Shown here one piece after another: positions 10,823 to 14,287 of a stretch of DNA of 15,014 bases; the stretch's first letter is position 1; every line of letters begins with the position of its first letter. This DNA comes from a virus, in UHGV virus genome UHGV-0136760. One strand, given 5' to 3'. Both the position numbers and the translations under genes were made by a program. The notes under the pieces were generated by a model. It ran no database searches, was not told the origin of the DNA, and saw nothing but the letters and a program-made list of their open reading frames with translations.

Positions 10823-11212
10823 ATGGGCTTCCCTTCTCCTGCGGCGGATTATGCAGAGAGCCGCATTTCTCTTGATCAGCAACTAATCAGACATCCTTCC
10901 GCGACCTACTTCATGCGGGCGGCAGACAGCCATCACCGTGAGGGAATATTGCAAGGTGCTTTGCTGGTGGTTGATTCCTCACTTACTCCGGTTGATGGTT
11001 CACTGCTTATATGCGCTATGGAGGGTGAATATCGCATAAAGAGATACAGGAAGTATCCGCGCCAGCACCTGGAGGATTTAAGCACCGGGAAGAAAGAGGC
11101 GTTACCAGTAGATGACGATGGATGCACGGGCAGTAATGCTGTGTTTGGTGTGATCACTCATGTCATTAATGATGCCCGAAGTGGGGAGTTTGATTATAGA
11201 CCTGTGATTTAA
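10823..11212 (+). CDS. UmuD'-like protein (S24 LexA/UmuD peptidase fold lacking the N-terminal arm; P1 HumD-like)
   Basis: Starts MGFPSPAADYAE, i.e. at the position corresponding to the UmuD to UmuD' cleavage site. Colinear with E. coli UmuD' through to FGVITHVI. GAGGTAAAA Shine-Dalgarno. Confidence 0.8.
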   Translation: MGFPSPAADYAESRISLDQQLIRHPSATYFMRAADSHHREGILQGALLVVDSSLTPVDGSLLICAMEGEYRIKRYRKYPRQHLEDLSTGKKEALPVDDDGCTGSNAVFGVITHVINDARSGEFDYRPVI

Positions 11213-11257: not shown

Positions 11258-12352
11258 TCATTCAATGATTTTTTCGGCTGTCAGCCAGCTAATTTCGTGC
11301 CTGTCTTTCGGCGGTTTTAGCATGTGAGCATATTCAGCGACATGCTCCCACGGAATTGTTTTTGCCCACTCAACGATAGCATTGTGATCTGCAGTGAAGA
11401 GTGGAATAGTGTGCGATTTCAACCATTCTAATGTCGTGACGCCATGTTTTTTGGCGTGGTGCTGCGCATGATGCCGGGCTATCACTCGTAATGGCATTGT
11501 CCATTCACTACCATCAGGCATCGAAAAGCGCATTGTCTTCGGCATATCTGATTCAAGAACAGCCTCCCTAATACCAGGGAACTCACCAAGAATCATACGA
11601 CGATAGTCATCACTATTTCGCCCGCCATACCTTTCGGCAAAATGATCAAGATATTCTTGGGTAATAAATGGTGAATCCTCCGCACTCAGCTTAATGGCTT
11701 TATATACACCACTCGGATTATCTTCAGCTAAAGCACGTCCATGATGTGAATCATAAAAAAAGCCTATTTCCTCTGGTGACGGAATTGAAGTGAGCAATAT
11801 GCGTGAATCACCACTAGTCATGCTTGCCCACACAATGCTGTATGCCCGATCGCTGATATGTGCGGAATCCACAATAATGAATAAAAGATGGTCGGCGTAG
11901 TGACCTGCAATGCTATCTTCATAGTTAAGGCGGTAGTTACAAAAGCACATTCCCCAAAATTCATTGAACATCAGACCGCTATCACCGACCTTAAAATACT
12001 CAATGATAAAAGGTTGTTTTTTCAGCAATGCCTCCCAACATTGCCACACATATGCAACAATTCCTCTTTTGCAAACATTTGATTTTGGATAAACAATTAC
12101 TGTCCGGGAATCAGGATACATAATCGTATAAAGGGTACTAATAACAGCAAGCACTTGCGGTCGTCCGATCCCATACGGAGTGGTGACAGTAGCTTTTGCA
12201 TTATTGGGCTGTATAGCTTCAACAATTTGTTGTTGCTGGTGGCTTAAATCAATATCAAACAATTCTTTTGCTGCCAGTACCCAATTGTCTTTATATTTCT
12301 CCACCAGCGACAGCCAGCGCGGATCTTTATAAATATTGCTCTTAGTCGCCAT
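11258..12352 (-). CDS. terminase large subunit-like ATPase-domain protein (no nuclease domain)
   Basis: Start taken at the internal ATG at 12352 (MATKSNIYK...), which has an AAGGAAG Shine-Dalgarno and overlaps the upstream stop. Terminase-like motif order: P-loop-like GIGRPQ, Walker B-like LLFIIVDSAH, motif III-like LLTSIPSPEE, then YRRMILGEF. Only 364 aa. Confidence 0.5.
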   Translation of the reverse strand: MATKSNIYKDPRWLSLVEKYKDNWVLAAKELFDIDLSHQQQQIVEAIQPNNAKATVTTPYGIGRPQVLAVISTLYTIMYPDSRTVIVYPKSNVCKRGIVAYVWQCWEALLKKQPFIIEYFKVGDSGLMFNEFWGMCFCNYRLNYEDSIAGHYADHLLFIIVDSAHISDRAYSIVWASMTSGDSRILLTSIPSPEEIGFFYDSHHGRALAEDNPSGVYKAIKLSAEDSPFITQEYLDHFAERYGGRNSDDYRRMILGEFPGIREAVLESDMPKTMRFSMPDGSEWTMPLRVIARHHAQHHAKKHGVTTLEWLKSHTIPLFTADHNAIVEWAKTIPWEHVAEYAHMLKPPKDRHEISWLTAEKIIE

Positions 12353-13109
12353 CTGCCACTTCCTTAACTTCTTCTTTGGCCTGTTCTGCAATCGCCGCAC
12401 GGCATTTCGCCCTGGCTGTAGCGATTGCTTCAGCTCGCACATCGTCTGGAATCGTTGACGTGATATACATATCCAGTTCTTCGGCACGGAATACTGTTTG
12501 GTCCAGATATTCGCGTAGCATCCAGGTAAATTCGAAATCACACGCGATAATCTCTGCGCTACCTTCTGCACCATTTGGGAAATGAATAAATGCCTGTTTA
12601 GCCAAACCGATAACACGACATGCGGTTGCCAAAACAGCGACAACCAGGTTTACATTTTCACACGCTACGGGCTGATTAACGCCGGAGATTACTCCATTTA
12701 ACTGTCGGTTATATGGAAGGTAGTTTGAGATGCGTTCTACGCGCCATGTGCCAGTCAGGCTGCCATTTTTAAAGATAATTGGTGTAACGGATAGCCCAAG
12801 CTCGCGTATAAGTCGTTGCGCTATAGCAGGATCATTAAACAGGTCTAATGCTACACATTCGAAAGACTGCGCAAGGGCAAACAGTTCTTCCAGAGAGTAG
12901 TCTTTGCCCCTGGCGGTGATGTAACGACGAACGCCGCTGTCTGCATCACTCCATATAGCTACGCCATGCTCTTCATTCAGCTCTTCATTAAAGCCGAGAT
13001 ACGTCATGATAGTGCGTTCAATCGTGTCAAACGGCAGTGACATGTCGGCGTTAACAGCCACCAGCAGGCCATTACGCAAGCGGTATTGAATTGTTTTAGT
13101 GCTTTCCAT
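12342..13109 (-). CDS. hypothetical protein (255 aa)
   Basis: ORF with a GGAG Shine-Dalgarno. Acidic Ala-rich C-terminal tail. No recognised domain. Confidence 0.55.
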   Translation of the reverse strand: MESTKTIQYRLRNGLLVAVNADMSLPFDTIERTIMTYLGFNEELNEEHGVAIWSDADSGVRRYITARGKDYSLEELFALAQSFECVALDLFNDPAIAQRLIRELGLSVTPIIFKNGSLTGTWRVERISNYLPYNRQLNGVISGVNQPVACENVNLVVAVLATACRVIGLAKQAFIHFPNGAEGSAEIIACDFEFTWMLREYLDQTVFRAEELDMYITSTIPDDVRAEAIATARAKCRAAIAEQAKEEVKEVADGD

Positions 13110-13115
13110 GTCAAA

Positions 13116-13778
13116 TCACTCCACAACAAACCAGTCACAGGCCAGCAGGTCGCCAACTGAAGGCACCCACGGAACAACTACACCTTGTGCATTTTTTAAG
13201 GCGAAATAAGCACCATACGGAACGAGGTCGCCGGGGAAATATCCCTTAATGGCTTCCATTCGTGCCGGGTGCTGTCCTTCAGGAACCAGCCAGCAGAATT
13301 GGTCTTCGCCGTTCCACCCGCGTCGAGCAACTTTCTTGCCATCCTTCATCCACATCAGCGCGTCAGAAAAGTCGGCTGCTTCAAGGTCGATTTCTTCTTG
13401 TAGAGTAGCGATACCGCCAGCAGAAATAGTTACGTCCCTGGCTGTAATGAATGTCACCCCATTGTGACCTTCAATGCTGAGCGATACCCCATTTTCGGAG
13501 GCGTCGTTAACCCGGCTATAGCATTTTTCAAATGCTTTCTCTGGCACATAGACCAGATAACCATTTTCAGCAGTGACGAGATATCCTCCTATTTGCGGTC
13601 GGAACTTTTCCAAGAACACACCATCAACACGAAGCGTCATTCCTTTTGGCTCCACGACTTCGATGCTGCCAAAAATGGGCGCATAAGCTTTGCCGACAAT
13701 AACAATATCTTTGATTTTCGATGCCCGAATGATGCTGTGGCATTTGTATTTGGGGAACACCTGAAAAGTGCTGGCCAT
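13116..13778 (-). CDS. two-domain protein with C-terminal DUF2829 (Tad2-like) domain
   Basis: C-terminal ~90 aa (FSDALMWMKDGKKVARRGWNGEDQFCWLVPEG ... VVPWVPSVGDLLACDWFVVE) matches the DUF2829 signature. The N-terminal ~125 aa is an unrelated domain. GAGGAAGG Shine-Dalgarno. Confidence 0.6.
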   Translation of the reverse strand: MASTFQVFPKYKCHSIIRASKIKDIVIVGKAYAPIFGSIEVVEPKGMTLRVDGVFLEKFRPQIGGYLVTAENGYLVYVPEKAFEKCYSRVNDASENGVSLSIEGHNGVTFITARDVTISAGGIATLQEEIDLEAADFSDALMWMKDGKKVARRGWNGEDQFCWLVPEGQHPARMEAIKGYFPGDLVPYGAYFALKNAQGVVVPWVPSVGDLLACDWFVVE

Positions 13779-13792
13779 AATCCTTCCTCTAC

Positions 13793-14287
13793 TTAAAACT
13801 TTGCGTACTGAAGCGGTGTACGCTTGATTTCAACGCGGCCTTCCGATGTGCTACCAAAGCCACCAGCACCACGCTCCGTTTCGTTGAGTTCCTCAACCTC
13901 GACTAGTGAGACTTGTTCAACACGCTCAAAAATACCTTGCATGACAGCCATTCCAGGCTTGAGACAAACGCCTTCCCCGCCGGGATCAGTAATCAGTTTT
14001 GCCATGATTTCGCCGCGATAATCGGAGTCGATAATTCCTACGCAGTTAGCCAGGCGAGTATGTTTTTTGCAGCCCAATCCGGATCGCGGATAGAGTTTCA
14101 GACACCAGCCGGGCGGGATCTCCATAGCCAGTCCGGTATACACCCACCAGCTTGAGGAAATTGCACCATTGCTATCGACGCATGGTGTTATTTCAACAGC
14201 CTCAAAATCCATTGCTGCCGATCCTGCGGTGGCATAGAACGGCAGTTTTGCACCAGGATGCAGGCGCTTCACTTTTACGTTAATCAT
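13793..14287 (-). CDS. dut: dUTP diphosphatase (trimeric dUTPase)
   Basis: Start taken at the internal ATG at 14287 (MINVKVKRL...). All recognisable dUTPase motifs present: YATAGSAAMDF, PRSGLG, GIIDSDYRGE and RGAGGFGSTS. Overlaps the upstream gene by 8 nt. Confidence 0.85.
   Translation of the reverse strand: MINVKVKRLHPGAKLPFYATAGSAAMDFEAVEITPCVDSNGAISSSWWVYTGLAMEIPPGWCLKLYPRSGLGCKKHTRLANCVGIIDSDYRGEIMAKLITDPGGEGVCLKPGMAVMQGIFERVEQVSLVEVEELNETERGAGGFGSTSEGRVEIKRTPLQYAKF

Follow-up and report, generated by a model that had tools for sequence, protein, structure and literature searches.

The closest described relatives of the protein reported here are the Tad2 proteins. ModTad2, encoded by a prophage of Myroides odoratus (PDB 9EIB and 8V3E), sequesters His-ADPR and, in a second pocket, also cUMP/cCMP; it leaves type I Thoeris uninhibited. 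The pocket for ADP-ribose (ADPR) of SPO1 Tad2 (gp34.65) is formed by W25, N26, W73, S76, T78 and D79 (10.1101/2023.05.01.538930), and that of HgmTad2 (AcrIIA7) by W21, N22, G23, W87, S90, T92 and D93, mutants of which lose binding (10.1101/2023.11.15.567273). Tad2 also occurs fused to other sponges: Sequestin (PF21825), a sponge for 3'cADPR, was discovered via its fusions to Tad2 and Acb4, and the Acb4-Tad2 protein of Pasteurella phage Pm86 blocks both Thoeris and CBASS (10.1101/2025.07.12.664507). Here we describe a gene of the virus genome UHGV-0136760, which was analyzed as one stretch of 15,014 nucleotides (nt), referred to as the window. Its product of 220 amino acids (aa) connects an N-terminal OB-fold domain, related to the capsid-binding protein Dec of phage L, via a linker to a C-terminal Tad2-like domain. 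The gene is organized as follows:

13116..13778, minus strand: open reading frame (ORF) of the Dec-like OB / linker / Tad2 fusion, ATG start, 220 aa plus stop, taken from the ORF list
13503..13778, minus strand: N-terminal Dec-like OB-fold domain, aa 1-92
13386..13502, minus strand: variable beta-rich linker, aa 93-131, NDASENGVSLSIEGHNGVTFITARDVTISAGGIATLQEEID, with a predicted local distance difference test score (pLDDT) <50 and an unrelated sequence in homologues
13119..13385, minus strand: C-terminal Tad2-like (DUF2829) domain, aa 132-220, identified by PF11195, similarity to ModTad2 and pocket motifs
13218..13283, minus strand: insertion between strands b2 and b3 of the Tad2 domain, aa 166-187, of ModTad2 length and different between alleles

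We consider it likely, with a probability of about 0.7, that the fusion protein acts as a tetrameric sponge of the Tad2 type, which takes up a signal derived from ADP-ribose, may have a second nucleotide pocket and carries four tethered OB modules. The role of immune-signal sponge, for which the protein was a candidate in the original prediction, is the best supported function, because the Pfam profile, the sequence match to solved structures, the predicted fold and most of the ADPR-pocket residues agree. Judged by sequence and model, the protein is a genuine, and probably a functional, Tad2-type sponge.

The Tad2-like domain and its pockets

The profile of the Tad2-like family (PF11195, formerly DUF2829) matched aa 136-219 over profile positions 2-73 of 73, with an E-value of 2.7e-22 and a score of 79.5 bits versus a curated cut-off of 25 bits, a match far beyond chance. 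The assignment of the C-terminal ~90 aa to DUF2829, which had been made from the letters alone, was thus confirmed by Pfam, and each of the motifs on which it relied was found in the translation (KDGKKVARRGWNG at aa 145-157, VPW at aa 202-204 and DLLACDWFVVE at aa 210-220). Among the solved structures, a phmmer search identified ModTad2 as the closest relative (9EIB, E 7.7e-19; 8V3E, E 1e-18; 44% identity), followed by HgmTad2/AcrIIA7 (E 2e-9 to 6e-9) and SPO1 Tad2 (E 9e-8). The predicted structure pointed in the same direction. In an AlphaFold2 model of the single chain, built on 34 homologues, the Tad2 domain consisted of a helix (137-145) and subsequent strands, with pLDDT values of 76-91 and a dip to 55-66 at aa 171-190. 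When this domain was compared to 9eib, 8v3e, 8sme and 8kbi, Foldseek returned a probability of 1.00 and target template modelling scores (TM-scores) of 0.64-0.91, and for ModTad2 an E-value of 2.5e-8 with a target TM-score of 0.76-0.91.

The pocket was compared residue by residue with those of SPO1 Tad2 and HgmTad2, whose ADPR-contacting residues align to W155, N156, G157, W204, S207, G209 and D210 of the fusion protein. Except for position 209, which is a Gly here and varies between G, D and A among alleles, these residues were invariant in the 18 full-length homologues of our alignment (A1). With regard to the proposed inspection of the ligand pocket, the predicted fold is that of Tad2 and most of the ADPR pocket is conserved in the alignment, G209 excepted. 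The b2-b3 insertion is colinear with that of ModTad2 except for a one-residue gap. The same insertion builds the second pocket, for cUMP/cCMP in ModTad2 and for cyclic dinucleotides in HgmTad2 (for the latter see 10.1101/2023.11.15.567273).

Three length variants of this insertion were observed in the alleles of P1/D6 elements: PEGQ[HY]PARMEAIKGYFPGDLVPYG, a short form (VLAGS-VNLHDIQVPYG) and a long form (PDKQGASRLTPIKHAANGELEINFDSPLAPYG). The type of insertion, of N-domain and of linker re-assort independently among alleles, which indicates recombination between alleles, and we read the length variants and the re-assortment as the signature of an arms race.

On basis of the above, the gene product would be an anti-defence protein with two modules, encoded by a D6-like phage-plasmid of the P1 family. 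Its Tad2 domains would form the usual homotetramer, the inter-subunit pockets of which would sequester a TIR-derived ADP-ribose signal. The original prediction followed SPO1 Tad2 in expecting the gcADPR of Thoeris as ligand, which is not the best guess since the closest characterized relative is ModTad2; by closest homology, His-ADPR, the signal of type II Thoeris, would be the likeliest ligand, ahead of 3'cADPR. The second pocket may hold a cyclic mononucleotide, as in ModTad2, and with either ligand sequestered the host effector would remain silent. The four tethered OB domains would supply a second activity, and it is plausible that the N-domain confers new ligand or partner specificity, as had been suggested. 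In the allele of the window the N-domain may have been retargeted or reduced to a scaffold.

The N-terminal domain and its family

The first 92 residues were predicted to fold with confidence, at a pLDDT of ~85 within the full model and of 86, with a predicted TM-score (pTM) of 0.76, when modelled alone. The elements of the fold are b1 (16-28), b2 (36-41), b3 (48-52), a helix (53-59), b4 (66-69), b5 (75-78) and a second helix (80-86). The OB-fold of Dec of phage L shows a matching order of elements (PMC6449081), and for this reason the N-domain was classified as a Dec-like OB-fold. Residues 14-91 of Dec align colinearly to profile positions 14-91 of the query, and the block [FK]-[RK]-P-x-[IV]-G-G-Y-L ... 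A-F-E-x-x-Y is common to both. Over its 92 aa the N-domain is a homologue of the OB-fold with which Dec binds the capsid (PDB 6E3C). The original prediction described an unknown N-terminal domain of ~125 aa. The extension does exist, as aa 1-131 fall outside the Tad2 model, but it consists of two parts, a fold of ~92 aa and a linker of ~39 aa, and the fold is not an unknown one but that of a very large phage family. Lockin, TadIV-1 (a different protein, encoded by T4) and other recently described sponges were considered as relatives of the N-domain and discarded, as a search of the PDB gave no sequence or fold match except Dec.

The linker scores low in the monomer model as a whole, and some of the unrelated linkers of the homologues are helical. 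The idea that it could form a trimeric beta-helix like that of tail-fibres was dropped: it received no support from BLASTP, nor from tblastn, which yielded no tail-fibre match at E-values up to 10.

To appreciate the size of the OB family, a profile of the N-domain was run against a library clustered at 50% identity, which recovered 5,097 representatives at E <=1e-3 and 2,842 at E <=1e-10, most of which stand alone and are 80-130 aa long. The domain is not covered by any Pfam family, either in the fusion protein or in the multi-domain members that were scanned. In the PHROGs database, phrog_872 matches the fusion protein over its full length (E 1.4e-51) and phrog_11049 matches aa 3-93 (E 6.5e-37), and neither carries an assigned function. 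With a hidden Markov model (HMM) of the broad family the N-domain scored 89 bits versus 30 bits for Dec. The signature of the family comprises ~29 positions, most of them conserved for at least 80% among the best matches: P9, Y11, C13, H14, K15, V17, A19, K21, I22, V51, K58, H59, P61, G64, G65, Y66, V68, Y70, D72, G73, Y74, S76, S78, P79, A80, F83, E84, G86 and Y87. Its core can be written as C13-H14-K15 ... K58-H59-x-P ... G-G-Y-x-V-x-Y-x-D-G-Y-x-S-x-S-P-A and is not fully kept in the window allele. The P1/D6 allele P0013 retains most of it (H14-K15, K58-H59, Y70, D72, S76 and S78).

The domains to which the OB domain is fused provide a clue to its function. Of the best 150 matches, 93 are multi-domain members; Pfam annotations were collected for these, and the sole partners were Tad2 (14), PF21825 or Sequestin (14), PF13876/Acb4 (3), the Acb2/Tad1 hairpin (1) and DUF4406 (1). 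A second, independent search recovered PF21825, PF24729 and PF11195 only. In addition, the list of Lockin homologues in Table S4 of 10.1101/2025.07.12.664507 includes a protein with an N-terminal OB domain, which brings the partners to five sponge families (Tad2, Sequestin, Acb4, the Acb2/Tad1 hairpin and Lockin). The fusion protein itself is without PF21825 in a Pfam scan at E-values up to 1, and its relatives P0061, P0073, P0081 and P0094 possess it. Various layouts occur: OB-Tad2-Sequestin (P0081, P0094), Tad2-Sequestin (P0061), Tad2 followed by OB (P0091) and OB alone (QkW1_30). In the Lastaviruses SopranoGao and ZX1, the same locus encodes a near-identical OB domain and linker, which continue into Tad2 in the one and into a Sequestin-like domain in the other, a natural experiment in favor of modular exchange.

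The gene context of the family is accessory or early, rather than structural. The orthologue of Lastavirus, in the early region, comes second after a cro-like regulator, and one stand-alone member is located among early genes, beside those for SSB and primase. In Klebsiella prophages (L008-L010: 5001-5602) a canonical stand-alone OB gene of 85 aa forms a two-gene cassette with an 87-aa gene of unknown function; this cassette lies on the opposite strand between the genes for large terminase and portal and has ~720 nt of non-coding DNA upstream.

Since the OB domain has, apart from one DUF4406, only sponge families as recognizable partners and occurs mostly alone in phages, it is most likely a small-molecule binding or sponge-assisting module. 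Moreover, as its partners are sponges, like those through which Sequestin was found, the family qualifies as a strong candidate for either another sponge or an obligate partner of sponges, and the clue provided by five partner families is even broader than the one that led to Sequestin. The signature motifs of the family were not found in Table S2 (tested candidates) of 10.1101/2025.07.12.664507, which suggests that it was not among the candidates tested there. Tentatively, and with less than even odds, one could go further and regard the OB as the founding fold of another, very large phage family that binds or destroys immune signals, of which Dec would be a capsid-binding offshoot and the fusions two-headed inhibitors, the alleles of which would re-assort the type of OB, the linker and the insertion of the Tad2 pocket in an arms race with the signalling defences of E. 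coli.

A hairpin-helix motif (G-[DY]-[WY]-[ILV]-V-x-x-x-D-G-x-x-x-x-x-x-P-x-x-F-E-x-x-Y) that resembles b4, b5 and the helix of the OB domain was observed directly ahead of many Tad2 and Sequestin domains, on their N-terminal side, for instance as GYKVQYEDGYTSWSPKDVFEKAY in front of a Sequestin. It was seen in P0069, P0073, P0076, P0065, P0078 and P0059, and in Table S1 of 10.1101/2025.07.12.664507, and it may represent a minimal version of the OB module. In the giant proteins P0105, P0106, P0108 and P0136 (2,182-4,559 aa) the C-terminal half of the OB profile matched 12 to 28 times each; presumably these are repeat proteins of the same hairpin motif.

Alternative roles of the fusion protein

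Several observations weigh against the interpretation as a two-module sponge. The assignment of the ligand is a guess from the 44% identity to ModTad2. G209 takes the place of the residue that contacts the adenine, which is a Thr in SPO1 Tad2 (T78) and HgmTad2 (T92) and a Ser in ModTad2, and two of the contacts of HgmTad2 with cyclic dinucleotides are without conserved equivalents (R31 aligns to V165, N85 to a gap or to V202/P203). As to the N-domain, the window allele has changed eight of the ~29 signature positions (K15S, H59F, Y70A, D72N, S76V, S78V, A80E and G86C), and six of the eight residues replaced are polar or aromatic, the type that is expected to line a binding site. Dec, a binder of capsids, diverges at most of the same positions, and H59F is common to both. 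The eight replacements and the Dec-like divergence imply that the N-domain may not share the main activity of the family, and it may instead have an altered partner or the role of a scaffold. The orthologue in phage D6, orf114 (L001:6748-7188; 146 aa), continues after its first 20 residues (MNNMATKELFKFLPKYKAHK) directly with the linker (KNGTTVIITDDNG). An internal deletion, in frame, has removed the OB domain and left the linker and Tad2 in place; the OB domain is thus dispensable for carriage of the gene. Finally, a 2025 preprint dropped those Tad2 proteins that also carry PDB 6E3C (Dec) or a PF21825 domain (10.1101/2025.08.24.671296), and its authors may perhaps consider the 6E3C-containing proteins to be non-sponges.

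Other natural variants were found. In P0054 (241 aa; 15 member sequences) a deletion joins the dUTPase in frame to Tad2 (...ERGAGG|ITTQQEEIDLE), with loss of the OB domain. P0024 (306 aa; 5 member sequences, 1 contig) begins with a phage tail-fibre repeat (PF03406), joined to the OB domain inside strand b1 at ...SASKIKNVV, and is probably a chimera that arose by recombination. The copy in RCS47 appears to be interrupted at an inverted repeat and is annotated as "part 1".

One may ask whether the N-domain matters at all: the protein could be a Tad2 sponge whose OB domain is a passive passenger, either a scaffold for solubility, stability or oligomerization, or a decaying remnant. The replacement of eight strongly conserved positions would fit such a role, and so would the alleles in which the OB domain is deleted (D6), truncated (P0015, P0027) or replaced by unrelated N-terminal domains (P0069, P0076, P0078) or by dUTPase (P0054). 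Over these variants the Tad2 part stays ~80% identical, and the Tad2 module is the constant part of the gene. Nevertheless, we regard a passenger role as unlikely. The window allele is stable and common (its cluster at 99% identity has 197 member sequences, and several variants of 85-98% identity keep its substitutions), which favors purifying selection over decay, the model predicts a folded OB domain at high confidence, and an association with sponges that is repeated and exclusive in distant phages is hard to explain for a neutral passenger. The homology to Dec raises another option, namely that the fusion protein is capsid-associated, with the OB domain binding the coat lattice of a D6-like virion, the linker forming a short trimeric stalk like that of Dec and the DUF2829 domain being exposed at the surface of the capsid, for instance as adhesin or cargo. 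Dec likewise runs on into a beta-rich C-terminal segment, the linker stretch ITARDVTISAG resembles STARTITLTGA of Dec by eye, the window allele and Dec have both lost the polar signature of the family, and the lack of a decoration protein in the published account of the P1 virion proteome bears on P1 only, in which tblastn gave no copy of the gene, and not on D6-like virions. The probability of this option is nevertheless low, considering that the gene resides in an operon with dUTPase and accessory genes near cre, away from the head genes, and that the Lastavirus orthologue is early. Furthermore, a Tad2 tetramer clashes with a trimeric stalk, the linker is unconserved and without tail-fibre similarity, a BLASTP comparison with Dec aligns the OB part only, so that the linker does not align to the Dec C-terminus, D6 keeps the linker and Tad2 without the OB domain, and the five sponge families to which the OB family is fused are intracellular.

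The Tad2 domain could also be questioned, as AcrIIA7, the DUF2829 protein matched above, carries the name of an anti-CRISPR. We give hardly any credence to an anti-CRISPR activity instead of signal binding. The fusion protein resembles ModTad2 far more closely than AcrIIA7, and E. coli is not known to have type II CRISPR-Cas. Moreover, when HgmTad2 (AcrIIA7) was tested again it showed no activity against Cas9 and was found to be a sponge for gcADPR and cGG (10.1101/2023.11.15.567273). The reading as a tetrameric Tad2-type sponge with tethered OB modules thus remains the one we favor.

Gene neighborhood, distribution and known systems

The fusion gene is part of a tightly packed operon on the minus strand, which contains in order phrog_1968, phrog_6669, the dUTPase, the fusion protein, an IsaA-like protein (phrog_2326) and a 364-aa phrog_5902 protein. 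The features surrounding the gene are:

13782..13789, minus strand: Shine-Dalgarno-like GAGGAAGG, 3 nt 5' of the ATG of the fusion gene, read from the sequence
13793..14281, minus strand: dUTPase, upstream neighbor in the same operon (PF00692, E 3.6e-14; phrog_135, E 4.5e-60)
12342..13109, minus strand: IsaA-like protein, 255 aa, downstream neighbor (phrog_2326, E 9.7e-134)
11258-12352, minus strand: 364-aa phrog_5902 protein, with a weak match to phrog_2 (terminase large subunit; E 8.8e-9) over aa 143-265
10823-11212, plus strand: UmuD-like (P1 humD-type) Peptidase_S24 protein, present as in D6 and ordinary content of the P1 family

The ribosome-binding site of the fusion gene is strong. Its reading frame is separated from the end of the dUTPase by 14 nt, and the isaA-like gene, whose product gave no Pfam match, begins 6 nt past its stop codon. 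For the phrog_5902 protein the ATG at 12352 is more likely the correct start than the upstream TTG of the listed 461-aa ORF, which overlaps isaA. This gene holds the slot 3' of isaA where D6 has pdcA, doc and phd on the opposite strand. Inside the operon a scan for promoters and terminators revealed none, and a search for C1 operators with the P1 consensus gave no site with up to 3 mismatches allowed.

Around the fusion gene the DNA shares 88% identity with Escherichia phage D6, a plasmid prophage of the P1 family, in which the order of the dUTPase, DUF2829 and isaA-like genes is the same, beside a cre-like recombinase. The P1-like Salmonella phage SJ46 has the pair of DUF2829 gene and isaA between hxr and ssb, and the adjacency of the two is therefore conserved between the window, D6 and SJ46. 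Full-length homologues occur in phage-plasmids of E. coli and Salmonella. The gene was present in 213 of the 5,426 complete E. coli genomes, where 213 of its 220 places were on plasmids, of ~90 kb among the plasmids listed. A tblastn search of 50,697 phage records with the fusion protein had SJ46, Ro157c2YLVW, RCS47 and D6 among the matches listed; P1 and P7 were absent from these, and the idea that P1 isaB is a remnant of the fusion gene was dropped.

The architecture had been sighted before. "Tad2 AcrIIA7 (anti-Thoeris)" has been annotated in 93% of the D6-group and 56% of the P1-group phage-plasmids (10.1101/2025.09.12.675607), so that the Tad2 domain of these elements was already known from automated anti-defence annotation, and the proteins combining Tad2 and 6E3C had been encountered in the preprint that excluded them. 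The OB-Tad2 architecture has thus been noticed before and its function has not been studied in the literature searched, in which no paper was found to deal with OB-fold, sponge and Thoeris together.

Pathogenic E. coli, Shigella and Salmonella commonly harbor phage-plasmids of the P1/D6 group, the majority of which carry the gene. To know which alarm signal of the host is removed would help to explain their persistence. The N-domain OB family is the most valuable lead. If its sponge activity were true, thousands of proteins would join the anti-defence catalogue and the capsid decoration protein Dec would be tied to a family of immune evasion.

With respect to the described proteins, the fusion protein is most similar to ModTad2, with which it shares the W-N-G loop and the W-x-P-S-V-x-D segment. 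ModTad2, however, is a stand-alone protein of 89 aa, whereas the fusion protein has 131 additional N-terminal residues, and ModTad2 has the Ser mentioned above at the position of G209. SPO1 Tad2 and HgmTad2 have the same fold and an aligned ADPR pocket, but their identity is only ~30-34%, and the long insertion of HgmTad2 and its cGG contacts R31, S47, F70 and N85 are absent from the fusion protein. Dec shares the OB-fold and continues into a C-terminal trimeric spike (PMC6449081), where the fusion protein has a Tad2 domain. In addition, dec is located directly upstream of the terminase genes in a head assembly cluster, in contrast to the accessory operon, with its dUTPase and IsaA-like neighbors, that contains the fusion gene, and Dec is limited to P22-like Salmonella phages (>90% identity), whereas the wider OB family has thousands of members. 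Finally, the sponge-sponge fusions (the Acb4-Tad2 of Pm86, Tad2-Sequestin and Sequestin-Acb4) likewise consist of small modules joined by a linker in one polypeptide. The functional Pm86 protein tolerates an N-terminal fusion to Tad2. In the protein described here the partner of Tad2 is, unlike in the known sponge-sponge fusions, a Dec-like OB domain without a Pfam family.

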